From a bacterium (GTDB lineage Bacteria > Patescibacteriota > Minisyncoccia > UBA6257 > WO2-44-18): DNA of 64,000 nucleotides. Below, in pieces: positions 6,380 to 58,414 of the stretch; the stretch's first letter is position 1; every line of letters starts with the position of its first letter. A program made the translations under genes and the position numbers. Location of the stretch: assembly GCA_023244815.1 (NCBI GenBank), contig JAHFLQ010000001.1, positions 31,037-95,036 on the forward strand, written 5' to 3'. The notes beneath the pieces were generated by a model that did not search any database, had not been told where the DNA came from, and was given only the letters and a program-made list of their open reading frames with translations.

Positions 6380-8539
6380 ATGATTAAGCTGGAAACCGAA
6401 CTTCGGAATATAAAAGGAATCAACGAAAAGTTTTTGACTAAGCTGGACAAGCTGGAGATCAAAACTGTTCGGGATTTACTTTGGCACTTCCCTTTCCGTT
6501 ACGATGACTTTTCCAGCGTAGTGAAAATCGCTGATTTAAAAATAAATCAAGCGGCTACCATTAGGGGAGTAGTGAAAAAAATTTCTTTGCGGCGCTCTTG
6601 GCGCCGCAAGTTTGTTATTATTGAAGTCTTGGTGACCGACGAAACCGGCGGCATCAAGGCGATTTGGTTTAATCAGCCCTATATCGCTAAAGTTCTGCGC
6701 GCCGGAATCCGGGTGAATTTTGCTGGTAAGGTGATTCTTTCCAATGAAGAATTAGTAATGCAAAGTCCGGCCTATGAGCCGGTTACGGCTACTACCCAGA
6801 CCAGGCATACCGCCGGTCTAATCCCGATTTATTCTGAGACCAAGGGACTGACTTCTAAGGGCTTCCGGTTTTTAATCTCAGCGATTCTCCGGGCGATGGA
6901 GTCGGTTAAAGATTTTATTCCCGAAGAAGTTTTGTCTAGTAACGAGATGCCCAATATTATGACCGCGCTCCGCAATATTCATTTTCCGCTGAATATGGGG
7001 CAGGCAGAAAGAGCGAGAGAAAGGTTCGCTTTTGCCGATCTATTTCTGCTTCAGCTGACTAACTTAAAAAATCGCATCGCGCTTTCGCGCGAGAAAGCGC
7101 CGCCATTGGTAATCGATGCAGTCTGGACGAACGAAGTTATTTCCAAATTGCCCTTTGTCCTAACCGAAGCCCAGCGGCGGAGTCTGGACGAGGTCTTGGC
7201 CGATCTTAGAAAATCCCAACCGATGAACCGTCTTTTACAGGGCGATGTCGGCTCTGGGAAGACAGTCGTGGCGGCGATTGCCGGTTTTGCCGCGGCCGAG
7301 AATGGAAAGCAGACGGCCTTTATGGCGCCCACTGAAGTGCTGGCGCGCCAGCACTACAAAACGTTTGCCAAAATTTTCAAAAATATGGCAATTGGCACCG
7401 GAATTTTGATGGGCGGTGAGACCCGCGCTTATTACGGCGATGATTTGGAGGCAAAGGTCAGCCGCAGCAAGCTTTTAGCAGAAGTGGAAAGCGGAAAGAT
7501 AAAAATTCTAATCGGCACTCACGCGCTGATTTCCGGCGGCAAAACTCGGAAGCCCGCCCAGTTCAAAGATTTAGCATTGGCCATTGTTGATGAACAGCAC
7601 CGGTTCGGCGTGGATCAGCGCGCCGCGCTGGTGAAGCAGGAAAAGACCCCCGGCGAAGAGACCACCGTCCATTTCTTATCCATGAGCGCGACGCCGATTC
7701 CGCGCACACTCGCGCTGACTGTTTTTGGCGATCTCGATTTGTCGATTATTGACGAATTGCCGGTTGGCCGGAAGCAAATCATTACCAAAATCGTGTCGCC
7801 GGCTAATCGCCAAAAAGCTTATGATTTTATCCGACAGCAGGTCAAAGCCGGACGGCAGGTGTTTGTAATCTGTCCGCGCATCGCGGCCGCGGAAGCTGAA
7901 GGGGAGGCGGTGGAAGACGAGCCACGCGATAAACGAAAAGATCTTTGGGCGGAAGTAAAGAACGTCACCGAAGAATATGAACGGCTGTCCAAATCGGTAT
8001 TTCCGGATCTGCGGATAGCGATGCTGCACGGGAAATTAAAAAGCACCGAGAAAGCTAAGCTAATGTCCGATTTTTCCGCCGGCCATACGGATATTCTGGT
8101 TTCTACCTCAGTGATAGAGGTTGGAGTGGACGTTCCGAATGCGACCATCATGATGATTGAAGGCGCGGATCGTTTTGGCCTCGCCCAGCTGTATCAGTTT
8201 CGCGGACGGGTCGGTCGGAGCGATCATCAGTCATATTGTCTGCTCTTCACCGATTCCACCGCGGAAACCACGCAGAGCCGTCTAAACGCTCTTCTCAAAG
8301 CCAAAAACGGATTTGAATTGGCGGAACAGGACCTGGCGCTTCGCGGCCCCGGAGAATTTATCGGTGATAAACAGACGGGCATTCCGGATCTCGCGATGAA
8401 GTCGCTCAATAACATGGAATTGGTCAAAGCCGCTCGCGATGCCGCCGCCAGCATTGTTAAAAAGGATGCCGAACTTTCCGGTTATCCTGCTCTTCGCGCC
8501 CAGCTGGCTAGTTTCCAACAACAAATTCACTTAGAGTAA
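6380..8539 (+). CDS. recG: ATP-dependent DNA helicase RecG
   Basis: N-terminal wedge region (WHFPFRYDD), Walker A GDVGSGKT, DEQH box (VDEQHRFGV), helicase C domain. Start taken at MIKLE; an upstream in-frame ATG at 6347 is possible. Confidence 0.9.
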   Translation: MIKLETELRNIKGINEKFLTKLDKLEIKTVRDLLWHFPFRYDDFSSVVKIADLKINQAATIRGVVKKISLRRSWRRKFVIIEVLVTDETGGIKAIWFNQPYIAKVLRAGIRVNFAGKVILSNEELVMQSPAYEPVTATTQTRHTAGLIPIYSETKGLTSKGFRFLISAILRAMESVKDFIPEEVLSSNEMPNIMTALRNIHFPLNMGQAERARERFAFADLFLLQLTNLKNRIALSREKAPPLVIDAVWTNEVISKLPFVLTEAQRRSLDEVLADLRKSQPMNRLLQGDVGSGKTVVAAIAGFAAAENGKQTAFMAPTEVLARQHYKTFAKIFKNMAIGTGILMGGETRAYYGDDLEAKVSRSKLLAEVESGKIKILIGTHALISGGKTRKPAQFKDLALAIVDEQHRFGVDQRAALVKQEKTPGEETTVHFLSMSATPIPRTLALTVFGDLDLSIIDELPVGRKQIITKIVSPANRQKAYDFIRQQVKAGRQVFVICPRIAAAEAEGEAVEDEPRDKRKDLWAEVKNVTEEYERLSKSVFPDLRIAMLHGKLKSTEKAKLMSDFSAGHTDILVSTSVIEVGVDVPNATIMMIEGADRFGLAQLYQFRGRVGRSDHQSYCLLFTDSTAETTQSRLNALLKAKNGFELAEQDLALRGPGEFIGDKQTGIPDLAMKSLNNMELVKAARDAAASIVKKDAELSGYPALRAQLASFQQQIHLE

Positions 8540-16641: not shown

Positions 16642-18366
16642 ATGTCTGTCCGAGGTAAAGTCATTCTCATATTTTTAGTTGTCTTAATACTGGGCGGCGG
16701 AATGATCGCTTATTTTGCTTACCAGTCAAGCATTTCCAAGGGTTTGGAGATACAAATCACCGGTCCGGAAAAAGTTTTAATCGGAGTTCCTTTTGATCTT
16801 AAGGTGAACGTTGCCAATAGTTCCGAAAATTTGTTACAGCAAGCCCGACTCTCGGTGAATTTACCAGAAGGGATGGCGTTCGTTGGTTCGCCTCAGACGA
16901 AAAACGTGGATTTCCGCGACCTTGCCACGCTTGGCGCTGGAGGAGCGAGCCAGCAAATTTTCCGGCTGATCGCGCTCAATGGCGAGAACACTTTTAAAGA
17001 CATCAATGCCAGCGCCACCTACCTTTCTGGTTCTTTAAGTTCGCGCTTTCAAAAAAGCGTTGATTTCCAGTTAGCGATCGGCAATTACGGGATTACTTTG
17101 GATATAGCCACTCCCCAAAAAATTTTCAGCGGAGAATCTTTCGATTCCGAAATTACTTACAAAAACGTTTCCGGTGTTGATTTTGACAATCTTAAATTGA
17201 CAATGGATTATCCATTGACATTCAACTTAACTAAAGCTACCCTCAAGCCCGATATCGGCAATAATACCTGGCTGTTGGGCGGGCTTCGCAACGGATCAGA
17301 AGGGAAATTTAAAATTTCCGGCAATGTCATCGGGCCGGAAGGGGCCGCGTTCGACCTCAAGTCAATGATTGCCGCCAGTTTTCTCGGCCAGGAATATCCG
17401 ATCAGCGTTAACACGGCCACTCTTTCTATCGCTACTTCGCCACTTTCAATTCGGGTGGCGCTTAATGATAATCCTGAATATATCACTAACCCCGGCGACA
17501 CTTTGAATTACACGCTTACCTATGTGAATAATACCGATATTGGTTTGCGGGATGTGATTATAAAATCCCAACTTACCGGTACGCTGTTCGATTTCGGCCA
17601 GCTTTCCAGCAACGGCATCTTTCGTTCTACGGATAACACGCTGACCTGGAATGCTTCCAACGTTCCTGAACTGGGTACGCTGGCTCCGGGAGAATCCGGG
17701 TCGGTTACCTTTACAATCAAAGTTAAAAGCGCCTACCCGATCCGCCGTTTGAGCGACAAGAATTTCAGCCTTAAAATAAGGGCGACCATTGAATCGCCGA
17801 CGGTGCCCAGTTTCGTTCAGGCTGACCGCACTTTCAGTCTGGCCAGCTTAGAAACTAAAGTTGCCGGCAAATTAAAAATTGATTCCAAGGCCTATTTCCG
17901 TGACGCCGTTTCTGGAATAATCAATGAGGGGCCATTTCCTCCAAAAGTAAACCAGGTTACCGAATATACGGTTCATTGGCAGTTGACCAATTATGGTACA
18001 GACGCGAAAGATATTACCGTCAGCGCCTTTCTCGGAGGCAATGTAAAATTTACCGGAGTAGCTAAGGCCAGTGCCGGCGCTTCTGTGCCGACCTATAACG
18101 ATCGTACTCAGCAAATGACCTGGACGATTAGCCGTGTACCCGCGACGGTCGGCGTGATTTCTTCCCCATTGGAGGCTACTTTCCAGATAGCCGCGACGCC
18201 GTCTTCTTCCGACCTCAATACTTTTATGCCTCTTATTCAAGAAACTATTATTAGTGGAACAGATGAATTCACGAATGCTCAGCTTAATAGCGCGGATGGA
18301 CCAGTATCCACGCAATTGCCGGATGATCCGACAGTAGCGAATACGCCGGGCGTAGTTAAACAATAA
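16642..18366 (+). CDS. membrane-anchored surface protein with repeated beta-rich (DUF11/CARDB-like) domains
   Basis: N-terminal TM helix followed by about 5 repeated roughly 100-aa Ig-like segments rich in T/N/S with a recurrent TYxN/GxxF pattern. Confidence 0.5.
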   Translation: MSVRGKVILIFLVVLILGGGMIAYFAYQSSISKGLEIQITGPEKVLIGVPFDLKVNVANSSENLLQQARLSVNLPEGMAFVGSPQTKNVDFRDLATLGAGGASQQIFRLIALNGENTFKDINASATYLSGSLSSRFQKSVDFQLAIGNYGITLDIATPQKIFSGESFDSEITYKNVSGVDFDNLKLTMDYPLTFNLTKATLKPDIGNNTWLLGGLRNGSEGKFKISGNVIGPEGAAFDLKSMIAASFLGQEYPISVNTATLSIATSPLSIRVALNDNPEYITNPGDTLNYTLTYVNNTDIGLRDVIIKSQLTGTLFDFGQLSSNGIFRSTDNTLTWNASNVPELGTLAPGESGSVTFTIKVKSAYPIRRLSDKNFSLKIRATIESPTVPSFVQADRTFSLASLETKVAGKLKIDSKAYFRDAVSGIINEGPFPPKVNQVTEYTVHWQLTNYGTDAKDITVSAFLGGNVKFTGVAKASAGASVPTYNDRTQQMTWTISRVPATVGVISSPLEATFQIAATPSSSDLNTFMPLIQETIISGTDEFTNAQLNSADGPVSTQLPDDPTVANTPGVVKQ

Positions 18367-18370
18367 GATC

Positions 18371-19687
18371 ATGAACTTACTCGAAAAAATAGTTAATCTC
18401 TCTAAGCGTCGCGGATTCATATTTCCAGGATCCGAAATATACGGCGGTTTAGCTAATTCTTGGGATTATGGCCCGCTCGGCGCGGAGCTCAAAAAAAATA
18501 TTAAAGACGAGTGGTGGAAGCGGTTTGTCCATCAGCGCACCGACATGGTCGGCCTGGATGCCGCTTTGATGATGAATCCAAAGGTATGGGAGGCAAGCGG
18601 CCACGTCGCCGGTTTTTCCGACCCGCTAACGGAGTGCAAGAAATGCCACCATCGCTTTCGCGCCGATAAAGTGACCGGCAAAAAATGCCCTGACTGTGGT
18701 GGCGAGCTAACTGAGCCCAAGCAATTTAATTTAATGTTCCAGACTTTTATGGGGCCATCGCAGGAAAAATCCAGCGCGGTCTATCTGCGTCCGGAGACGG
18801 CACAGGCTATGTTCGTGGATTTCAAATCTATTTTGGAGACTACTCGCAAGCGTCTGCCGTTCGGTATCGCCCAAGTTGGCAAGGCCTTTCGCAACGAAAT
18901 AACCCCAGGCAATTTTATTTTCCGCACGCGCGAGTTCGAGCAAATGGAGATAGAGTATTTTGTCCGCCCGGATGAATGGGAAAAGTATTTTGAAAAATGG
19001 CTCAAAGAAATGAAGAAATGGCTCAAAGATTTGGGGGTTTCAGAAAAGAAACTGCACTATGCCGAAATTCCGGAAGGGGAGCGGGCGCACTACTCCAAGC
19101 GCACGGTGGATATTGAATATGATTATCCTTTTGGCAGAGAAGAACTCTATGGCCTAGCTTATCGCGGAGATTTTGATTTGCAAAATCATATGAAAGCAAG
19201 CGGACAGGATTTGAGTTATGCCGACCCGGAAAATCCCAAAGACAAATTTGTGCCGCACGTGATTGAACCGACCTGGGGCGTGGACCGCTCGGTGCTGGTG
19301 GCAATGCTGGAGGCTTACCATGAGGAAGAAGCACCGACGGCAGAAAAGGGCGAGAAGGAGCAGAGGACTGTGATGCGTTTCCCGAACTGGCTGGCGCCGA
19401 TTAAAGTCGCCGTTCTGCCGCTTTCCAAAAAGCCGGAGCTCGCGAAAATCGCCGAGCCCATCTACAAAGAGCTGACGCAAAAATTTGTCTGCGAATATGA
19501 CGAAACCCAGAGCATCGGCAAGCGCTACCGCCGCCAGGACGAGATCGGCACGCCGTATTGCGTGACGGTGGATTTTGACACCATTAAAGACAAAGCCGTT
19601 ACCGTGCGTGACCGCGACACGATGAAGCAGAAGCGGGTAAAGATTGCAAAGCTCGGAGGTTACCTAGGTGAGCAGTTGGCGAAATAA
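18371..19687 (+). CDS. glyQS: glycyl-tRNA synthetase (class II, dimeric GlyQS type)
   Basis: N-terminal RGFIFPGSEIYGGLANSWDYGPLG is the GlyRS hallmark. Class II motifs and a C-terminal anticodon-binding domain are present. Confidence 0.9.
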   Translation: MNLLEKIVNLSKRRGFIFPGSEIYGGLANSWDYGPLGAELKKNIKDEWWKRFVHQRTDMVGLDAALMMNPKVWEASGHVAGFSDPLTECKKCHHRFRADKVTGKKCPDCGGELTEPKQFNLMFQTFMGPSQEKSSAVYLRPETAQAMFVDFKSILETTRKRLPFGIAQVGKAFRNEITPGNFIFRTREFEQMEIEYFVRPDEWEKYFEKWLKEMKKWLKDLGVSEKKLHYAEIPEGERAHYSKRTVDIEYDYPFGREELYGLAYRGDFDLQNHMKASGQDLSYADPENPKDKFVPHVIEPTWGVDRSVLVAMLEAYHEEEAPTAEKGEKEQRTVMRFPNWLAPIKVAVLPLSKKPELAKIAEPIYKELTQKFVCEYDETQSIGKRYRRQDEIGTPYCVTVDFDTIKDKAVTVRDRDTMKQKRVKIAKLGGYLGEQLAK

Positions 19688-19715
19688 AAAATCCCCTTAT
19701 TCGTAGGGGGATTTT
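19686..19715. terminator. bidirectional rho-independent terminator
   Basis: AAAAAATCCCCttattcgtaGGGGGATTTT with A/T runs on both sides. Serves glyQS (+) and the convergent small membrane gene (-). Confidence 0.7.
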
Positions 19716-30197: not shown

Positions 30198-31266
30198 GCC
30201 TCACTTTCACGTTCAGCATTTTTTTGCCGCGCAATAATTTGAAGTTCAGAATATCGCCCACCTCTTTTTCTTCTAAAATATCCTGGATAGTGTGCCTGTC
30301 GGTAATGGGCGTGCTGTCACATTCTAAAATAATATCCTTTTCTTTTAGGCCGGCTTTATGCGCGGGACTTCCTGGTATGACGCCCGGTGTATGTGGCTGT
30401 TGGCCGAAAACCATCGCGCCGTGGTCTGTCGACAGCTTCATTCTGGCTTTCATATTTTCATCAATCGTCAGGTAGCGCACGCCTAACAAAGGGCGTTTAA
30501 TCCGGCCAAATTGTTTGAGATCGCCCAGATCCCTCTTGGCATAGTTAATCGGAATAGCAAAGCCTAGATTTTGCGCTCCGAAGACAATAGCCGCGTTAAT
30601 GCCGATGGCTTTTCCGTCCAGCGTTACCAACGGACCGCCAGAGTTACCCGGATTAATAGCGGCATCCGTTTGAATCAATCCGCGAAGTTCCTGTGGCGCA
30701 ACCATTGGCGCGGTGGCCGCTCGGATTGATCTGGAGAGTCCAGAAATAATACCCACGGACACGGTATTTTTGAAAATACCAAGCGCGTTGCCGATGGCCA
30801 GCACTTGCTCTCCTAGTTCCAAATGGCCGGACTCTCCAAGTTCCACAATCGGCAGATTTTTACCGCTGATTTTAAGGATAGCTACGTCGTCCACCGGATC
30901 GCGCGCTAATACCTCGGCCTTATATTTTTTGTCGTTATTAGCAATAACGGTGTATTCAGCGTTGGGATCAACTACCACGTGCTTATTGGTTAAGATAATG
31001 CCGTTGGGGTCAACGACGAATCCAGAGCCGCCGCCGATTTTTACCATTCCGTGCGCGTCTATTTCTTCTTCCGGAATATCCAGGTGCGGATGGCCGTACG
31101 GTAAAAATGGCAAAACCTCTGGTGGGATTTCTTTTTCAATCGCCTCTAGGCTTTTAGAAATAACGATTGATACTACGGCCGGCATCACTTTTTTAATAGT
31201 TTCTTTAATATTCATACTATCAATTATATCATAGACTGTTTTTTCAAATAAAAAGGCCTGATGCAC
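30181..31266 (-). CDS. htrA: HtrA/DegP family serine protease with PDZ domain
   Basis: Catalytic triad context (TNKHVV, DVAILKI, GNSGGPLV) and a C-terminal PDZ domain. Start may instead be the internal MNIKETIKK at 31215. Confidence 0.85.
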   Translation of the reverse strand: MHQAFLFEKTVYDIIDSMNIKETIKKVMPAVVSIVISKSLEAIEKEIPPEVLPFLPYGHPHLDIPEEEIDAHGMVKIGGGSGFVVDPNGIILTNKHVVVDPNAEYTVIANNDKKYKAEVLARDPVDDVAILKISGKNLPIVELGESGHLELGEQVLAIGNALGIFKNTVSVGIISGLSRSIRAATAPMVAPQELRGLIQTDAAINPGNSGGPLVTLDGKAIGINAAIVFGAQNLGFAIPINYAKRDLGDLKQFGRIKRPLLGVRYLTIDENMKARMKLSTDHGAMVFGQQPHTPGVIPGSPAHKAGLKEKDIILECDSTPITDRHTIQDILEEKEVGDILNFKLLRGKKMLNVKVRLTERK

Positions 31267-51065: not shown

Positions 51066-51100
51066 GAAACCCCTCTAGTGAGGGGTATTTTGATTGTTTT
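51066..51100. terminator. bidirectional terminator
   Basis: AAACCCCTCtagtGAGGGGTATTTTGATTGTTTTT. The stop codon of the minus-strand gene 51075.. lies in the loop. Confidence 0.6.
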
Positions 51101-51482
51101 TGGCTTCAACGTGCTTTGGCTTCCAAGCTCCGTTAAGCGGCATAGCTGAAAAAAGTAGAAAAATGAAAATAACACCAAACCAATAAACCTTAAACGGTTT
51201 ATTCTCAATTTTATGTAGCATAGCAGATCCTAGCATTGCGAATGTGGTTATAAATAGGCCAAAGGCCAAACTCTTAACAAGGGCAACAAAATACTTTCGG
51301 CCTCCAAGTGTATTCTTGAACTCAACGAGAAATCCGGCCAGAATCACGCTGGAATACATAAACCCCATCAGTCCGATCAGCAAGGTGTGCGTGCCGAGAG
51401 GAAGCTGTTTTGTTCCGACTTCAAAAAAATGAGTTGCCGTCGCAATCACTAATCCAATAAGCGCCGCAAGGACAACGATCAT
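51075..51482 (-). CDS. hypothetical membrane protein (4 TM)
   Basis: GGAGG RBS 6 nt upstream of the ATG at 51482; the longer ORF to 51512 is less likely. Confidence 0.5.
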   Translation of the reverse strand: MIVVLAALIGLVIATATHFFEVGTKQLPLGTHTLLIGLMGFMYSSVILAGFLVEFKNTLGGRKYFVALVKSLAFGLFITTFAMLGSAMLHKIENKPFKVYWFGVIFIFLLFSAMPLNGAWKPKHVEAKNNQNTPH

Positions 51483-51571
51483 ATGTCTGCCTCCAAAAAA
51501 TATATCAACCAACTACAGCTATGGTAGCCAACACAGACTAGTTTATCAAGGTGTTGTTAGCCGTATTAATG

Positions 51572-51655
51572 TGCTCTCGGGAGGATTTGAACCTCCAATC
51601 CCTTGCGGGAACATGGTCCTAAGCCATGCGCGTCTGCCAGTTCCGCCACGAGAGC
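51572..51655 (-). tRNA. tRNA-Leu (anticodon UAG)
   Basis: Reverse complement: GCTCTCG tg GCGgaacTGGCag ... CATGG CTTAGGA CCATG, a long variable arm, T-arm GGAGG TTCAAAT CCTCC. A 10-bp inverted repeat (CCCGGGTGCC/GGCACCGGGG) lies immediately upstream at 51656-51696. Confidence 0.85.
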
Positions 51656-51791: not shown

Positions 51792-52307
51792 ATGACTGGC
51801 AATGTTGTTGAGATCAGAGAAGGTCAGTTTGCGCGCGAGCAAAAAATTGCGGAAATTGTAAAAAGCCTTTGTCCCGGCCTATACCTGCATTCTCGTGCCG
51901 GCAGGGGAGTGATACGCGCCAGCGTGCCGCGGCTGCGCTTTGACAAGAGATCGGCGCTCAGATGGTTTTGGAGGATTTTCGGCAGCGCGGGTCACTTGGA
52001 CAACAATGTTGTTATGACGATCACTGCCAAAGGACGGCAGAGCCTTAATCTTGCCGGCGATTGGCCAGAAGTAGAAATCCATCTTTACGATTTGGATTTT
52101 TTGAAAAAGGCGCAGCGGCTAGCTTTAGAGTATAAGTGGCAGTTTTCGCGCTCAGCTGTTTTGATCGTTGACTTGATTGCAAAACAATCTCGCTGGCGGC
52201 CGTTCTTCCGTTTTGCCGCGTTCACGCTCGCACTTGCAACCGTTGTCGTTGGACTGCGACTCCTTTCGCTCCATTTTATAAAAAGTTTTTTAAGCCTGCT
52301 TTTTTAA
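51792..52307 (+). CDS. hypothetical protein with C-terminal TM helix (first gene of GC-richer island)
   Basis: 171 aa, Arg-rich, no recognisable domain. Visibly higher GC than the flanking genes. Confidence 0.45.
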   Translation: MTGNVVEIREGQFAREQKIAEIVKSLCPGLYLHSRAGRGVIRASVPRLRFDKRSALRWFWRIFGSAGHLDNNVVMTITAKGRQSLNLAGDWPEVEIHLYDLDFLKKAQRLALEYKWQFSRSAVLIVDLIAKQSRWRPFFRFAAFTLALATVVVGLRLLSLHFIKSFLSLLF

Positions 52308-52326
52308 GCAGGCCCTTTTGTTGTCT

Positions 52327-52400
52327 TATAGGCTAATTCGCACGAATTAGCCTATAAGACCAGGTTGTTTAAAAAAGATGTTTGACTTTTTAAACAACTC
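52327..52400 (+). promoter_or_regulatory. two adjacent long perfect palindromes in island intergenic region
   Basis: CTTATAGGCTAATTCGcaCGAATTAGCCTATAAG (16-bp arms) and GTTGTTTAAAAAgatgtttgacTTTTTAAACAAC (12-bp arms), upstream of the SPFH operon. Confidence 0.4.
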
Positions 52401-52457: not shown

Positions 52458-53459
52458 GTGCGAAGATTCATTCGCCGGTTGTGTATCGGATTTCTGCAGT
52501 TGCTCGCCGCCGGGTTTTTACTCGGAGCGAGCGGCGCCGCGATCTACGAGAGCTATCGCCACGGTGGCACGCTGGCAATCATTGGAGCGGCAGTGATGGT
52601 ATTTTTTCTGGTTTTTGTTCCGTCGGGACGGAAGATTCCGACTTTGAAAATCGGAATGGTGACGTTTCTTGGCATGAGAACGGGCCGGGTGCTCGAAGAA
52701 GGGTTCCACCTGATCATTCCCTGGTTCGAGGATGTGGCGCTGTTCGATAATAAGGTACGTACAGTTCAGGTGTCGGGGAAGTTTTTCTGCAAAGATAACC
52801 TCTCTGTGGTGCTCGGCGGCCTGGTAACCTGGAACAACGACAAAGAGCTTCTCCCGACTAGCTTTGTAATGAATCAGGAGAAGATTGACATCGAGCTGGC
52901 GAGCGTGGTTTTGAACCAACTCGCGATCATCGCCGGAGCAACCAATGCCGCCGACATCAAGGGTGCGCAGGAGGCTTTCGGCCATCTCGTCAATTGTTCA
53001 CTGCGCATGGGAATACCGCCGCATATAGAGCAGGGGATTCTGCCGGCGCAGCGCCTGGAGTTTTACGGAAATCCGGATCTGCATAACCGACTGGAAAGTG
53101 AGCATCGATTGGACGAAGAACGGTCGGAAATCGAAAACCGTTGTGGCGTTAACGTAATTTCTTTCACGCCCGATCCGGTGCAATACATCGGCGATACTGG
53201 CGAGGCGATGGAAGAAGAGGGCCGCGCCGCCCTCCGTTCGCGGGCGAAGAAAGTGCTTGCGGCCACCAAGCGTGAGATCTCCCGCGATCTTAGGGGAGAC
53301 GGCCTCACTCCGGATGGAGCCAATGCCTCCGCGGAACTGACGATGGGTCAGCAGGTGGAAAGGAAAGTTTACGACATTGGCGGTCTCGACAAATTTCGGC
53401 CGCTTTTGCCGCCCGAATCGTGCGACTACAGGAGGATAGAATGCCTGAATCGGAATTAG
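52458..53459 (+). CDS. SPFH/band-7 domain membrane protein (stomatin/flotillin-like) 1
   Basis: AAGGAGG RBS, GTG start. N-terminal TM hairpin, then an SPFH-like block (IPTLKIGMVTFLGMRTGRVLEEGFHLIIPWFEDV...KDNL). The C-terminal half is unassigned. Confidence 0.5.
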   Translation: MRRFIRRLCIGFLQLLAAGFLLGASGAAIYESYRHGGTLAIIGAAVMVFFLVFVPSGRKIPTLKIGMVTFLGMRTGRVLEEGFHLIIPWFEDVALFDNKVRTVQVSGKFFCKDNLSVVLGGLVTWNNDKELLPTSFVMNQEKIDIELASVVLNQLAIIAGATNAADIKGAQEAFGHLVNCSLRMGIPPHIEQGILPAQRLEFYGNPDLHNRLESEHRLDEERSEIENRCGVNVISFTPDPVQYIGDTGEAMEEEGRAALRSRAKKVLAATKREISRDLRGDGLTPDGANASAELTMGQQVERKVYDIGGLDKFRPLLPPESCDYRRIECLNRN

Positions 53460-53989
53460 CAAAGGCAAACCCGTTGGTTTCCAAGAAAAACATTCTGATT
53501 GGGTTAGCAATCGGTTCGCTGTTGATGACCGTCGGGTTTCTCTCGAAGTCCGGTGTGTTTTCCAAAGCGAAGACAGCGATTGTCGGTTGGTGGACTGCCA
53601 TGGGCAGAGAGACGTACCGAGCGGCAGATTTCGTCCCAGCGTCTACCACACCGGCGGTTAACGATAGTTTCGCGCGCCTCCGGCAATTTCCTTTGGATGA
53701 GCGTCCGCCGGCAGTCTTCAGGGGTCTCCAGAAAACTGTTACGGTAGAGCTCAAGGCCGACGAGTGGTCGCGGGAAATAACGGTTCCGGATCGCAAACTT
53801 TGGTGGCGGCTGGAAGTGGATCCGACTGACGGATACTATATGCTGTTCGCCGATAGCCAGATAGTGGAGCGTTTGCCAACGGATACCAGCGAGCGAGACT
53901 TGAGCAGTTACCGGTTGCCCTTCCGCCTTTTAGGGAAGAAGCCGAACCAGACGGCCAAAGTGGAGATTTTTACCAAGCCCCCTAAATAG
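53441..53989 (+). CDS. small membrane-anchored beta-rich protein (NfeD-like partner?), paralog of 55314..55847
   Basis: AGGAGG RBS. One TM, then the conserved block ...VELKADEWSREITVP...WRLEVDPTDGYYMLFADSQIVE, shared with 55314..55847. Confidence 0.45.
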   Translation: MPESELAKANPLVSKKNILIGLAIGSLLMTVGFLSKSGVFSKAKTAIVGWWTAMGRETYRAADFVPASTTPAVNDSFARLRQFPLDERPPAVFRGLQKTVTVELKADEWSREITVPDRKLWWRLEVDPTDGYYMLFADSQIVERLPTDTSERDLSSYRLPFRLLGKKPNQTAKVEIFTKPPK

Positions 53990-54092
53990 GGGGCTTTTCT
54001 TTAGCTTGACAAAATAAGAGAGAACGTGCTACCATTGTGGCAGTAGTTTGTCTGTACTTTTAGAATTGAAAAACAGAAAGAAGGAGGTTCGA

Positions 54093-55295
54093 ATGTTCAA
54101 GAAAGCGTTGTGGTCTCTGGTCATCGGCGCGGCAATTTTTGCTGGCGCCGTGTTCATCCCGTGGGGGACCATCGGTGACGTGATTGCAGGCTCTCTGCCC
54201 TGGGGGGCGGTCTTCGGTTGGACGTGGAAGACGTTCGCCGGATTGGTGGGTGCGCTGGCGTTGGTCATGGTCGCTACCAAAGTGATCCGGGAGCGGATAA
54301 ACGTTTCTCGTTTGCCGGTGCTTCTCTGGATCACCGGCATCGTCGGAGCGTTGCTCTACTACTGGCCGACGCTGGGACGGCTCCAGCTTCCGGCGCTTTG
54401 CGGCGCGGCCGTTTTGATCGCTTTGTGTTTCGGGATCGTTCAGCCCTTCAACGGCGGTATCGTAACTTTTCTCGGTCGCCCGGTGCGATCTGTTGGCGCC
54501 GGCGCGGTCTTGCTGTTCCGGCCGTTCGGGATTCCCTTTGAGGCAATCTCGGATCTGGTGGATCTCAAGAACACGGCTCTCAACGACGTAAAGTTGAGGG
54601 CCGAGACAGGCGGCGAAGCGGAGTCCGGCGTGGATAAGGGCTACGTGGACCTTGAAGTTGCTTTTCAATACGCGCCGGACCCGTCTAATCTGATCGCTTA
54701 CGTCAGTTTCCAGCAGGATAAGCTGGTGCAGACGCTCAAGGATCAGTTAGAGGCTCTGCTTAGCGCGGCAGTCGAGCGTCGTCCCAACGTGGACGCAGTC
54801 TACGAAGAGCTCGACGACATTTCCAGAGAAACCCTTCTGGCCTACGAGAAAGTCGCCAGCCGCTACGGAATCATTCCGAAAGTGGTGCTGATGGACGATC
54901 CGCAGTTGCCGGAAGAGACCATCAGGGCGAAAGTCGCGCGTGACAACCTGAAGGCCGATGCCCTCGCGAAAATCGAGGTGCAAAAGTCCGAAAACGCGCG
55001 GCGGCAGGCGGAGATGACGAAAGTGAGGCAGATGGCGGCGGGGTTAGTTAAAGAAGCCGCAGAGCGGGGCCATCAGATCACCTTCGAGCAGGCGCTCGAG
55101 CGGGTGCAGATCCAGCTTGGCGTCGTCAAGAAAACCATCAACGCGGTGGACATCGGTCCCGCGGCGGACAGCGCTCTTAAGCAAATTGTCCCGATGGTCG
55201 TCAACCGGTTCGGTTCCGAGCCGGTTACTGTGGAGAAGGGCTCGGCCTACACCAAGCCTCGTCCAGGTTTGGATGCGGGCAAGAACAAGAAGTAG
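54093..55295 (+). CDS. SPFH/band-7 domain membrane protein 2
   Basis: GAAGGAGG RBS. Four N-terminal TM helices, then an SPFH domain (GIVTFLGRPVRSVGAGAVLLFRPFGIPFEAI...DLEVAFQYAPDP) and a long C-terminal coiled-coil. Confidence 0.6.
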   Translation: MFKKALWSLVIGAAIFAGAVFIPWGTIGDVIAGSLPWGAVFGWTWKTFAGLVGALALVMVATKVIRERINVSRLPVLLWITGIVGALLYYWPTLGRLQLPALCGAAVLIALCFGIVQPFNGGIVTFLGRPVRSVGAGAVLLFRPFGIPFEAISDLVDLKNTALNDVKLRAETGGEAESGVDKGYVDLEVAFQYAPDPSNLIAYVSFQQDKLVQTLKDQLEALLSAAVERRPNVDAVYEELDDISRETLLAYEKVASRYGIIPKVVLMDDPQLPEETIRAKVARDNLKADALAKIEVQKSENARRQAEMTKVRQMAAGLVKEAAERGHQITFEQALERVQIQLGVVKKTINAVDIGPAADSALKQIVPMVVNRFGSEPVTVEKGSAYTKPRPGLDAGKNKK

Positions 55296-55313
55296 ATTCT
55301 GACAGAAAGGAGA

Positions 55314-55847
55314 ATGGTGATGCAGATCATCAATACGACGCATGACGGCAAGTTCAGGCAGTTTGGCGCGAAGTTCGCGTTGGCGATACTTCTCCTCATC
55401 GCGGTCGTTTCTCTCATCTGTTTCTACGGTGAGAAAATCAAGTCGGCGGTGAGCGGCTATGTGAATAGCCATGGCAGTCGCTCCAGCTCGGAGGTGGATG
55501 GAAGCACCCGTATCACAGCTGGTCCTCCGGATCGATTGTTTCCGGAGAGTAGCAAGCCAGTTGTAAGGTTCATCGGATCTAGTCGGGCGGTTGTTGATTT
55601 GTACACCAATGAGTGGTCGCAGCAAATTATAACACCAACGCATCCGACCAAGATCGTTGACTACCGCGTTGATGTTGAGCCACCCACAGGGTTCCTAATC
55701 AAGTTCCAGGATGGCTACATCGATGAGGTGCGTGTGGATCAAAGCAGAGTGAATGACTGGAGTATGCGCAGGGGGATTTTCCGAATACTCGGAACGTCTT
55801 CTGGGCAGAAAGCTACAGTCACCATCTCATACAGATTTGCTCGTTAG
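55314..55847 (+). CDS. small membrane-anchored beta-rich protein, paralog of 53441..53989
   Basis: One TM, then ...VVDLYTNEWSQQIITP...YRVDVEPPTGFLIKFQDGYIDEV, sharing the EWS...P...R.[ED]V[DE]P.TG[YF]...F.D block with its paralog. Confidence 0.45.
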   Translation: MVMQIINTTHDGKFRQFGAKFALAILLLIAVVSLICFYGEKIKSAVSGYVNSHGSRSSSEVDGSTRITAGPPDRLFPESSKPVVRFIGSSRAVVDLYTNEWSQQIITPTHPTKIVDYRVDVEPPTGFLIKFQDGYIDEVRVDQSRVNDWSMRRGIFRILGTSSGQKATVTISYRFAR

Positions 55848-55906
55848 TAACTCAAACTCCCCAAAGGGTAACCTTCTGGGGAGTTTTCTTTGATTAATCT
55901 CAAAAC

Positions 55907-56251
55907 CTATTTAACCAAAGCGGTTGCCAAGGAAACGAGTATCTGGGAAGCTAATCCCACTGCAACCGCCACCACGGCGTAGATAATCATATTTTTCGCT
56001 GTCTTAACTTTTTCTTCATCGCCAGCGGCTGTCAGATAGTTGTAGGCGGCGATGATCACAAAGATAACGGCGAGCGCGATCAAGCCGGTAAGCATCCAGT
56101 TGATCACGGTTTGGAGTATTCCCAGAATTCTTTGCACCGGGTCTCCCTGCACCGGCGCCGGCTGGACATAATTTGGCAGTTGCGCAGACGCAAACCACGG
56201 CAAAGCCATTGCCGTTACCGAACTGCCGATTGTTAAAGCTTTTCTGAACAT
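55907..56251 (-). CDS. pilin-like small membrane protein (VirB2/TrbC-like topology), paralog 1 of 3
   Basis: Signal peptide, variable region, TM1, the LTAAGDEEKVKTAKN loop, then TM2. It shares its C-terminal half with the next two genes. Confidence 0.5.
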   Translation of the reverse strand: MFRKALTIGSSVTAMALPWFASAQLPNYVQPAPVQGDPVQRILGILQTVINWMLTGLIALAVIFVIIAAYNYLTAAGDEEKVKTAKNMIIYAVVAVAVGLASQILVSLATALVK

Positions 56252-56307
56252 TTTTTATTTATTGGAATTAATCGACCTTGGTACATCTATTATTGTAGCA
56301 CAGCAGA

Positions 56308-56682
56308 TTAAACCCCGACTAATCTCTGGATAAGAGCGATAATTACCCGGAAGAGCAACATGATCGCGAGTCCGATGACGGTGTAGAAAATAGTTTTTTT
56401 ACCTCTTGCTACCTTCTCTTCATTTCCGGCGGAGGTGAGAATTTGAAAAGCCCCGAAGATTACCATAATGGTGGCTATTGCCACCGAAATGGTCAAAAGA
56501 AACCCGACTATATTATCAAGAAGTTCGGTTATGTTTGAAACACAGAGTGGATTTGGGAGACTTAACGGATCCGTACCTTGTTTGCCGCATCCTCCTGAGG
56601 GAGGGTTAGAGCCAATACCCGTTTGAGCTAGGGCTATGTTAGTAATAGCAAACGAGAAAATAGTCAACAATATTTTTTTCAT
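56308..56682 (-). CDS. pilin-like small membrane protein, paralog 2 of 3
   Basis: Signal peptide, a Cys-pair variable region (GGCGKQG...LCVSN), TM1, the LTSAGNEEKVARGKK loop, then TM2. Confidence 0.5.
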   Translation of the reverse strand: MKKILLTIFSFAITNIALAQTGIGSNPPSGGCGKQGTDPLSLPNPLCVSNITELLDNIVGFLLTISVAIATIMVIFGAFQILTSAGNEEKVARGKKTIFYTVIGLAIMLLFRVIIALIQRLVGV

Positions 56683-56684
56683 GT

Positions 56685-57086
<402 letters not shown>

Positions 57087-57124: not shown

Positions 57125-58414
57125 TTATCTTGCCCGTCTTTGCATCAAATCCGTGACCTTGCTGGCAGCTTCGGAGAGGGCGCGGTTGGCAGGCAGGCGG
57201 TTGGCGATCACATTCGCGATCATACCGGAGAAAATACTGTCCACAGCGGCATTATCCACTTCCGGCCAGGAGCGAGCCGTCAAGGCTTGGTTGGCGAAGA
57301 TGCCAAGGTCCGGTTGGGTGGCGGCATATTGGGAGATTAGGCTACGCAAAGCTGGCGGCCGTCCGGAAAGTTCAAGATATTTTTTCGAAGCGTCGGCGTT
57401 GGTAGTCATATATAAGATGAAATCCTGGGCGAGCGCCTGATTTTGGGTTTTGTTGGAAACGGCGAGTCCCCAGTAGTTAGCAAAGTTTACGTCCTGTTGG
57501 CGGCTCTCCGGCTGGAGCATTGGCGCCACGCGGAATTTCAGAAAAGGACTTTTCTCTTTCAAAAATCCAATTTGATGCGAGTAGTTAAACATTATCGCTG
57601 TCTCGCCGGCGGCGAAACTATCCAACGAATACGGGAGTGACTCATTCCAGGTGTAGAGAGGATCGCGGGAGTTTGCAAACGAAGTGTAGAAATTCAGCGC
57701 CCGCTCGCCCTGACTGGAATCAAACGTAGCGGCGGAGAAATCGCTGGCCACCATTTCCGTGCCTGACTGGAGCATTAAGAGATTCAAAATGTCGGTGGCG
57801 CGATTGATGCTTTTATTGGATCCGCCAAGCGCCGCCGCGGCCTTCGTGATGCGGCCGAATTTATCTACCTCGCGGATTTTTGGCACGATTTTGGCGAACT
57901 CCTCCCAGGTTTTCGGCGGAAGCGCGATCCCTTTGTTGTCGAAAATATCCTGATTGTAAAACATTGCCAGCGTGTCTATATAAAGCGGCAGAGCGTAGAC
58001 TGCGTTATCCGGCGCGAAATCTTGCTGGGCGACGGTCGGGAAAAGGTTTTTGAAACTGGCGAGCGACATCGCGTCCGCGCTGATCGGGAAAATTTTGTTG
58101 ACGTGTTTGGGCAGCCAGGTGTTGTGGAACATAAACATGTCCGGCGGGTTGGTGCCGGCGAGCGAATCTACCAGTTTTTGCTCGTAGGTATCGCTATCCA
58201 CTTCTGTGTAAGTTATTTCTATTTTGGCTTTCGGATGAAGCGCTTTATAACTATCGATCAGCGGCTGCATCGTCGCCGAGTCGTCAAAGACGCCCCAAAA
58301 ACTCAAATTCCCGGAAAGCTGAGTCCCCGATTTCTGCGTTCCAAAAATAAACAACGCCACAACGCCGGCAATTACCACCGCTGCCAATATCAAAATAATC
58401 AATCTATTGCTCAC
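57125..58414 (-). CDS. extracellular solute-binding protein (ABC transporter SBP family 1), TM-anchored
   Basis: N-terminal TM anchor, then a family-1 sugar-type SBP fold (pattern of W/Y/F residues; TWLPKHV...). No permease or ATPase genes are adjacent. Confidence 0.6.
   Translation of the reverse strand: MSNRLIILILAAVVIAGVVALFIFGTQKSGTQLSGNLSFWGVFDDSATMQPLIDSYKALHPKAKIEITYTEVDSDTYEQKLVDSLAGTNPPDMFMFHNTWLPKHVNKIFPISADAMSLASFKNLFPTVAQQDFAPDNAVYALPLYIDTLAMFYNQDIFDNKGIALPPKTWEEFAKIVPKIREVDKFGRITKAAAALGGSNKSINRATDILNLLMLQSGTEMVASDFSAATFDSSQGERALNFYTSFANSRDPLYTWNESLPYSLDSFAAGETAIMFNYSHQIGFLKEKSPFLKFRVAPMLQPESRQQDVNFANYWGLAVSNKTQNQALAQDFILYMTTNADASKKYLELSGRPPALRSLISQYAATQPDLGIFANQALTARSWPEVDNAAVDSIFSGMIANVIANRLPANRALSEAASKVTDLMQRRAR

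Follow-up and report, generated by a model that had tools for sequence, protein, structure and literature searches.

Results

Two SPFH genes, each followed by a small membrane protein gene

We analyzed a stretch of 64,000 nucleotides (nt) from a genome assembly (GCA_023244815.1, contig JAHFLQ010000001.1, forward strand positions 31,037 to 95,036), which is referred to as the window and whose source organism is a saccharibacterium (Candidatus Saccharibacteria). The subject of this study is a module of five co-oriented open reading frames (ORFs) on the plus strand at 51.8-55.9 kb of the window. The ORFs were designated as leader, A1, B1, A2, and B2. A1 (52458-53459, 333 residues) and A2 (54093-55295, 400 residues) encode divergent SPFH/band-7 proteins, and each is followed by a gene for a single-pass membrane protein, B1 (53441-53989, 182 residues) and B2 (55320-55847, 175 residues, or 177 residues from the ATG at 55314). 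B1 has a predicted C-terminal beta-sandwich domain and belongs to a family that we termed the B family. The leader gene (51792-52307) is a 171-residue ORF. The four A and B ORFs listed in an initial annotation of this DNA were all present. B1 starts at the ATG at 53441 with AGGAGGA ahead of it, so that its first 19 nt are shared with the end of A1. The start codon of A2 is the ATG at 54093, which is preceded by GAAGGAGG. For B2, the ATG at 55320 is a more likely start than that at 55314 because of the spacing of the ribosome-binding site.

The initial annotation assigned SPFH domains to both large genes, and a profile comparison agreed with this. Against a gathering cut-off of 23.6, the Pfam Band_7 profile (PF01145) matched A1 with 39.7 bits (E=7.1e-10) and A2 with 30.5 bits (E=4.5e-7). 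In precomputed annotation, most A orthologues of five related loci also carried a Band_7 match, some of them weak. The small proteins had been proposed to be homologous as well. B1 and B2 were 32% identical over 160 residues (BLASTP, E=3e-14), and the motif EWS..I..P...[WY]R[LV][ED]V[DE]P..G[YF]...F.D..I.E was found in both. Judged by their sequences, B1 and B2 are clearly paralogues. A1 and A2 showed no BLASTP similarity to each other (E=0.75). In a profile-profile alignment (hhalign), the A1 and A2 families aligned over 256 columns with a probability of 93.9% (E=1.6e-7), and the alignment spanned the last transmembrane (TM) hairpin, the SPFH domain, and the C-terminal helices. The tandem duplication described in the initial annotation is thus real, but old, because the homology of A1 and A2 is visible at the profile level alone.

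A1 consists of a positively charged N-terminus, a TM hairpin, the SPFH domain, a helical C-terminal region, and conserved C-terminal Cys and Arg residues. A1 has two N-terminal hydrophobic segments and A2 about four, and the TM segments of A2 are followed by the SPFH domain and a long helical C-terminal region. In both proteins, the helical character of this region was predicted from sequence. A1 orthologues were 42-55% identical, and A2 orthologues 22-34%. The best family similarity of A1 was a weak one, to HflC and prohibitin. When the equivalog profiles TIGR01932 and TIGR01933 were tested, the best HflC score was 18 bits against a cut-off of 134.4. With this score, two to four TM segments, a predicted cytoplasmic domain, and no linked ftsH gene, A1 and A2 are not HflK and HflC. 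A1 also had a partial match to a PHROG 'lipoprotein' family on the start of its SPFH domain. The only PADLOC match among the five module proteins was that of the helical part of A2 to the AAA region of GajA (E=0.031), and the PADLOC-DB search gave no meaningful match of the module proteins to known anti-phage defence.

Two further sequence features were noted in A1-type proteins. An insertion at residues ~178-203 (window ~52989-53066) has no counterpart in A2 and contains the invariant residues N179, L182, H189, P196, R199, L200, F202, and Y203. The C-terminus (residues 318-333) carries a conserved PP...C..R motif.

The B family differs from NfeD

To find relatives of B1 and B2, we performed an exhaustive HMMER profile search of 1.84 billion representative proteins (E<=1e-3). 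The search returned 37 representatives of the B family, of which 36 were credible. The remaining one, P0044, is a low-complexity repeat protein and was rejected as probably spurious. B1 and B2 had no Pfam, NCBIfam, PHROG, or PADLOC assignment, and a profile search of the PDB with the B family found nothing relevant. Family members share an N-terminal tail, one TM helix, a stalk, and a beta-sandwich with the pattern 'EWS...FRLLG..GQ.A.V'. An AlphaFold2 model of B2, built from a 35-sequence alignment, had a mean pLDDT (predicted local distance difference test) of 82, with values above 90 in the beta domain. The model places a TM helix at residues 19-46, a disordered stalk at ~47-75, and a sandwich of 7-8 strands at 90-175.

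The initial annotation suggested that the small proteins may be short NfeD/OB-fold-type partners. In this reading, B would be a very divergent NfeD protein whose cytoplasmic OB-type barrel binds the C-terminus of the SPFH protein, as in QmcA-YbbJ, FloT-YuaF, and PH1511-PH1510. The context fits, since B is a small membrane-anchored all-beta protein tightly linked to an SPFH gene, and in some distant B variants the beta domain is preceded by several TM segments, as it is in NfeD. Sequence similarity among NfeD families is also hard to recognise, with an identity of 21% between YuaF and PH0471 (PMC2636767). NfeD proteins have been described as ~140-150 residues long, containing three hydrophobic stretches and ending in an OB-fold barrel of five strands (PMC2636767, PMC4208085). 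B departs from this description in sequence, in architecture, and, according to its predicted structure, in fold. The NfeD profile (PF01957) matched neither B1 nor B2 at E<=10 and none of 35 family members at E<=1, and the model of B2 shows one TM helix and a sandwich of 7-8 strands. The operonic linkage to an SPFH gene is shared with NfeD, but linkage alone does not define a family. We therefore regard the NfeD reading as very unlikely. Sequence and predicted structure indicate that B is an undescribed family and not NfeD.

The family includes several variants. P0043, L035, L066, L076, and L092 have several TM segments, P0036 and P0038 have two B domains, and P0029 has a PKD domain between the TM segment and the B domain. 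Other known sandwich domains (the collagen-binding/PPC-type domain of collagenases, GOLD, and cupin-like domains) resembled B with similarity scores at a generic level and an identity of at most 14%. They share no motif with B, and B has no Pfam match.

A further observation concerns P0030, a large surface protein of 1612 residues with Listeria-Bacteroides repeats (Flg_new) and an fn3 domain. It contains six copies of an unannotated inter-repeat domain (W.DG.IT...E.WY.FDV..G..YYVWWND) that weakly matches positions 94-135 of the B profile. It could be distantly related to the B sandwich, or the motif may match by chance.

SPFH and B genes are paired across loci

We then read the context of B genes in related loci (labelled L). 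Wherever the context was readable, the gene immediately upstream of the B gene was an SPFH gene or one whose Band_7 match fell below the threshold. The two genes overlapped by 19, 16, 16, 13, 4, 4, or 1 nt, or were otherwise separated by a gap of at most ~30 nt. This pairing was read in the window (two pairs), in L001, L006, L011, L013, L014, L016, L017, and L020, and in 17 further pairs from metagenomic loci. The neighbourhood check proposed in the initial annotation thus bore out its view of the SPFH protein and the small partner as a unit. The SPFH-B pair is a conserved, translationally coupled unit.

The wider sample comprised 80 metagenomic loci (L025-L104), which were retrieved with a profile of the solute-binding protein (SBP) adjoining a pilin array. 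Their ORFs were scanned with purpose-built hidden Markov models, those for SPFH and B being iterated. A locus was counted as informative when it had a pilin array together with enough downstream sequence or a module match, and 45 loci were informative. Among these, 17 had a B and SPFH pair, 11 had SPFH only, 5 had B only, and 12 had neither convergent with the array. An SPFH gene, a B gene, or both were thus convergent with the pilin array in at least 33 of 45 loci. In most of the five B-only loci a contig end is close, and in L048 the upstream gene is a sub-threshold SPFH gene (E=2.9e-4). The 12 loci without a convergent module include L043 and L046, which have an SPFH match on the other strand, and L071, in which Pfam detects an SPFH gene at a distance of 1.3 kb from the array.

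Most of the 11 SPFH-only loci have a same-strand ORF between the SPFH gene and the pilins, with one or more TM segments and a C-terminal beta-rich domain. In a targeted hmmsearch with the B profile, these ORFs gave E-values of 1e-6 to 4e-2, compared with 2-3.5 for decoy frames; L067 and L092 gave no match in this search. On these grounds the B partner diverges to the edge of detectability. Outside the close clade, A1-type genes were paired with B1-type genes, and A2-type with B2-type, in 8 of 16 cases, a count to be read with the fact that distant B proteins cannot be subtyped.

Two loci contain expanded modules, with two SPFH genes and four B-like genes in L039 (8565-13190) and three B-like genes in L016 (5132-9113). 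These modules include the two-domain proteins P0036 and P0038. The copy number of the partner is therefore plastic.

A profile scan of a genome collection with A1 gave matches in three Saccharibacteria genomes only. As far as sampled, this type of pair is restricted to Candidatus Saccharibacteria. The initial annotation regarded the gene order and the duplication as unusual. Duplicated SPFH genes within one operon have already been documented (PMC2636767), and what is unusual here is the identity of the partner, not the gene order or the duplication.

The module faces a pilin array in a fast-evolving patch

Three VirB2-like T4SS_pilin genes lie downstream of B2 on the minus strand (55907-57086; PF18895, E=2.9e-7, 2e-11, and 2.6e-8), convergent with the module. 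Beyond them lies an SBP gene on the same strand (57125-58414; SBP_bac_8, E=6e-31), and the SBP gene and gyrA anchor a conserved SBP-pilin block. We found four module architectures, namely double pairs with a leader, a module with extra B genes (L016), a single pair (L017), and a module with a PKD-B partner (L020). All four stand tail-to-tail with the pilin array, SBP, and gyrA, and the opposite flank varies, being occupied by iPGM, by EPSP synthase plus a diversity-generating retroelement, by a He_PIG protein, or by a Cas2-like gene.

Evolutionary rates were compared as protein identity between the window and L001. The identities were 89% for GyrA, 81% for Xer, 78% for iPGM, 77% for RbfA, 74% for IF2, and 69% for SBP. 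They were 57% for B2, 54% for A1, 43-52% for the pilins, 39% for the leader, and 33% for both A2 and B1. Since the module (33-57%) and the pilins (43-52%) are set apart in this way from the flanks (69-89%), module and pilins together make up a single patch of fast evolution within a slowly evolving backbone. This is as expected for envelope or host-interface genes.

We considered whether the module is an accessory of the VirB2-like pilin or type IV secretion system (T4SS) apparatus. In this case, the SPFH ring would pool, chaperone, or quality-control the pilins, and B would be a surface component. Pilin subunits are membrane proteins with two TM segments before assembly, and T4SS components are reportedly found in detergent-resistant membranes in Agrobacterium. 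The constant position of the four architectures against a variable other flank, the convergent SPFH and/or B gene in at least 33 of the 45 informative loci, and the elevated rate common to module and pilin genes all speak for such a role. However, module and pilin genes are convergent, not co-transcribed, and the window has no virB4. Saccharibacterial genomes are highly syntenic, and the adjacency may be inherited rather than selected. In addition, 12 of the 45 loci had no detectable convergent module, and VanW or PMT genes were seen there in its place.

Published work on pilin arrays bears on both sides of this question. VirB2-like pilin arrays are common in Saccharimonadia and are essential in Southlakia epibionticum (PMC12102498, PMC10633639), which favors a link to the pilins. 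The main texts of these two reports do not mention an SPFH neighbour of the arrays. The one annotated SPFH gene of Southlakia epibionticum encodes a canonical slipin and lies apart from the T4SS cluster SEML1_0006-0019 (PMC10633639, supplement file 2), which counts against the link. A literature search returned no paper combining Saccharibacteria with SPFH, and the literature on Patescibacteria and flotillin was unrelated. Taken together, we consider a pilin accessory role possible but doubtful.

Several other features of this neighbourhood were observed. In nearly all 80 metagenomic loci, SBP is followed by a VirB2-like T4SS_pilin array of 1 to at least 6 copies, and gyrA adjoins SBP in the window, L001, L010, L017, and L020. 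In module-less loci, the place facing the pilins is held by VanW/PG_binding_4 proteins or a PMT-type glycosyltransferase, as in L096 (12657-14381), L091 (13653-14885), and L097 (14056-15462); these proteins also have envelope functions. The diversity-generating retroelement (bAvd accessory protein and RVT_1 reverse transcriptase) was found in L017 (50-1427) and L018 (142-1128), ~1.5 kb upstream of the single SPFH-B pair, with the EPSP synthase gene in between.

The leader gene and the probable transcription units

The leader protein has a soluble N-terminal domain and one C-terminal TM candidate (142-158), resembling a tail anchor. It had no match in Pfam, NCBIfam, PHROG, or PADLOC. Seven relatives were found among 5.8 billion clusters, and they adjoin A1 orthologues wherever the flanking sequence suffices. 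The leader is thus a conserved neighbour of A1 orthologues, which agrees with the proposal that the 171-residue gene belongs with the module. Its placement in the same operon did not fare as well. In L013, a 161-residue gene, which agrees with the leader homologue P0051 both in its own length and in that of its contig, lies beside A1 on the opposite strand, and in the window hairpins follow the leader.

We used consensus scans to look for hairpins and promoter-like sites. On the plus strand, a terminator-like stem-loop with a T-rich tail lies after the leader (52294-52313; L001 counterpart, 7023-7048), followed by an 18-nt perfect inverted repeat with a 2-nt loop (52323-52360; GTCTTATAGGCTAATTCG / CGAATTAGCCTATAAGAC). 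A 12-nt inverted repeat (GTTGTTTAAAAA / TTTTTAAACAAC) also lies between leader and A1, within 52323-52398. These repeats might act as a terminator or an operator, or might form an RNA element. An Rfam scan of the intergenic hairpins found nothing except tRNA. At the end of B1, a terminator-like hairpin on the plus strand (AAGCCCCCTA/TAGGGGGCTT, then TTCTTT; 53975-53996) has an equivalent in L001 (8592-8606). It is followed on the same strand by a promoter-like site before A2 (54006-54035; TTGACA-18-TACCAT, 10/12 matches, extended TG), and L001 has TTGACA-18-TATTAT (11/12) at the matching place. Between the convergent B2 and pilin genes, an inverted repeat (55854-55886) with 16-nt arms that are 88% complementary is likely, from its sequence, to be a bidirectional terminator, and L001 has a 14-bp stem at the matching place.

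This layout of hairpins and promoter-like site is common to the window and L001, though their module proteins are only 33-57% identical. The compact five-gene operon of the initial annotation is probably not correct, given the internal terminator-like hairpins and the promoter-like site before A2, both of which recur in L001. The sequence features suggest that there are likely three transcription units, namely leader, A1-B1, and A2-B2.

The module lies in a conserved chromosomal setting

The window contains several aminoacyl-tRNA synthetase genes, topA, relA/spoT, IF2, rbfA, iPGM, gyrA, and a gene for an S1 protein, together with ten tRNA genes and the triple array of VirB2-like T4SS_pilin genes. 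At least three further lineages (L001, L006-L009, and L010/L011) have the five module genes in the same interval, flanked by iPGM and the pilin array, and L013, a short contig, shows part of the module. A1 was 46-55% identical between the window and these syntenic loci, and the module was at the matching site in all close relatives found. The initial annotation placed the module in an island, which is at odds with this housekeeping chromosome, with the synteny in relatives, and with the lack of att-like or flanking direct repeats around the module.

We weighed the possibility that the module is an island or an anti-phage defence cassette that was horizontally acquired and inserted by tRNA-Leu. 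The leader is immediately preceded by a tRNA-Leu(tag) gene (51571-51655, minus strand), a tyrosine recombinase gene is located 2.3 kb upstream, and the GC content of the module is 0.537, compared with 0.479 for the rest of the window. However, the 5' side of the tRNA gene faces the module, whereas integrases insert at the 3' side. The recombinase is of the Xer type, syntenic in relatives, and 81% identical in L001. The flanks have no direct repeats, PADLOC gave no meaningful match, and the same module occupies the same position in several lineages at 33-57% protein identity. In all seven lineages (window, L001, L006, L011, L016, L017, and L020), the GC content of the module exceeds that of its flanks by 4-8 points, and gyrA has a GC content similar to that of the module. 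The GC excess is a stable compositional feature and not a sign of recent transfer. Acquisition as an island or defence cassette is therefore largely refuted, and we hold it to be extremely improbable.

With respect to composition and the surrounding genes, GC content at third codon positions was 0.74 in A2 and 0.44-0.59 in the pilin genes. A gene for a 145-residue membrane protein (51075-51512) has no called counterpart in L001, in which no gene was called between iPGM and the leader; this refers to gene calls only, and tRNAs are outside those calls. Relative to the window, L001 also has DUF4145 and SduA_C (Shedu-type defence nuclease) genes inserted between Lactamase_B_3 and S1 (17470-19699), a small variable defence spot ~7 kb from the module.

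Predicted topology and proposed arrangement

In most A proteins, a positively charged segment precedes the TM hairpin and the SPFH domain. Examples of such segments are MRRFIRR (A1), KVIRERINVSR (A2), and KHRAKKKPIKIVYRK (L017). Under the positive-inside rule, an order of this kind would place the SPFH domain in the cytoplasm. Among 35 B proteins, Lys plus Arg was higher on the N-terminal side of the TM segment in 22 and on the C-terminal side in 3. PKD is a typical extracellular domain, and P0029 carries it between the TM segment and the B domain. Four of the five multi-TM variants (P0043, L035, L066, and L092) were also read by the same rule with their C-terminal domain outside. From the charge bias, the PKD domain, and these variants, the B domain is predicted to lie outside the cell. 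We are fairly confident in this predicted topology, in which the SPFH domain is inside and the B domain is outside.

HflK/C, flotillin, stomatin, and prohibitin form rings or cages that fence off membrane. By analogy with these families, the C-terminal helices of A1 and A2 would drive oligomerisation into rings or cages on the cytoplasmic side of the membrane, either as homo-oligomers or as hetero-oligomers like HflK/HflC, and the TM hairpins of these proteins would fence off a patch of membrane. Gene linkage and topology suggest that B would be made in step with its SPFH partner and that its TM helix would be held in or at the ring. The beta-sandwich would then face outward, so that clusters of a rapidly evolving binding domain would be exposed on the surface of the episymbiont envelope. 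On balance, we lean toward this arrangement, in which an SPFH ring may hold a surface-exposed B partner in a membrane microdomain.

Several points weigh against this arrangement. The link between A and B consists of adjacency and start-stop overlap alone, and cage formation by A1 and A2 is assumed from what is known of the family. The topology rests on the positive-inside rule, and single-TM B proteins show a modest charge bias. The linkers of the B1 type are helical and carry many charges, the multi-TM variant L076 can also be read with its domain inside, and the TM counts of A2-type proteins vary from 2 to 5 in a crude hydropathy scan. Finally, 12 of 45 pilin-array loci had no convergent module detectable by the iterated search, and the link to the pilins is therefore not obligatory.

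The module could instead be an envelope-stress or membrane-maintenance unit like PspA-YdjGHI/SamGHI or HflK/C-FtsH, with B as an extracellular sensor or client. The weak similarity to HflC and prohibitin is in line with such a role, and the tail-anchored leader protein could be a cytoplasmic adaptor. Bacterial SPFH proteins have been linked several times to membrane stress and to the control of proteases (PMC8581546, PMC10434171, bioRxiv 10.64898/2026.02.06.704340). However, no FtsH, PspA, or protease gene was linked to the module in any locus examined, and B and A2 diverge very rapidly, which is not typical of a housekeeping stress system. A stress unit thus seems unlikely to us.

The preferred arrangement, an SPFH ring holding a surface-exposed B protein, can be extended to the neighbouring pilins. 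SPFH-B pairs might be the membrane-microdomain platform of an episymbiosis surface apparatus, in which rings organise both the B ectodomains and the pool of VirB2-like pilins. B and pilin paralogues would then co-evolve under host- or phage-driven selection. We put this forward as a tentative proposal, more probably wrong than right.

Discussion

SPFH proteins are universal membrane organisers. To our knowledge, clients have been identified for few of them, and no bacterial operon partner other than NfeD is widely recognised. In this study, we defined a previously unannotated family and corrected a likely mis-annotation as NfeD. The B family is a second, unrelated partner family that takes the genomic role of NfeD in Saccharibacteria. 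What is new is an SPFH system that is restricted to one lineage, whose partners form an undescribed and probably extracytoplasmic family, and whose association with VirB2-like pilin arrays is conserved. Saccharibacteria are ultra-small episymbionts, and their surface machinery decides host attachment. B is fast-evolving and probably surface-exposed, and it is encoded beside pilin arrays that are essential in the one genetically tested saccharibacterium, Southlakia epibionticum ML1 (PMC10633639). The module is a testable candidate for how reduced cells organise their contact surface. If the tentative extension to the pilins were true, the module would provide the first example of an SPFH scaffold linked to a pilin array, and also the first of a scaffold with an operon partner acting on the outer face of the membrane.

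Comparison with known systems

The module resembles HflK/HflC and the eukaryotic pairs PHB1/PHB2 and Flot1/Flot2 in having two divergent SPFH paralogues side by side. As with HflK/HflC, a hetero-oligomeric ring is plausible, and the best, albeit weak, sequence matches are HflC and prohibitin. HflK/C differ in that they have one TM segment, a periplasmic SPFH domain, and no intervening partner genes, and they enclose FtsH. In the module, by contrast, a separate partner gene, and probably a separate promoter, belongs to each A paralogue.

A second parallel is PspA-YdjG/YdjH/YdjI (SamGHI) of B. subtilis. In PspA-YdjGHI, co-encoded small membrane proteins reportedly set the membrane location of the SPFH protein. 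YdjI/SamI is a soluble SPFH protein that is recruited by its partners, whereas the SPFH proteins of the module are themselves polytopic. The module has no PspA gene, and its partners are not homologous to those of PspA-YdjGHI.

The closest comparison in genomic terms is with SPFH-NfeD operons, such as QmcA/YbbK-YbbJ and YqiK-YqiJ of E. coli, FloT-YuaF and FloA-YqeZ of B. subtilis, and the Pyrococcus stomatin with its NfeD protease partner (PH1510/PH1511). In the proposed arrangement, the module would function much as these pairs do, with an unrelated partner. Unlike NfeD, B has one TM segment instead of three, a stalk of ~40 residues, and a predicted sandwich of 7-8 strands instead of a five-stranded OB barrel. 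It also has no NfeD sequence signal and is predicted to lie outside the cell, that is, on the opposite side of the membrane. A1 and A2, unlike the SPFH proteins of these operons, match Band_7 weakly and belong to no named subfamily. As in stomatin- and flotillin-type members, the SPFH domain is predicted here to be cytoplasmic. The two systems have in common that the scaffold gene is in tight linkage with the gene for a small, membrane-anchored all-beta protein, that the two proteins diverge strongly, and that duplications within the unit occur in some lineages (PMC2636767).

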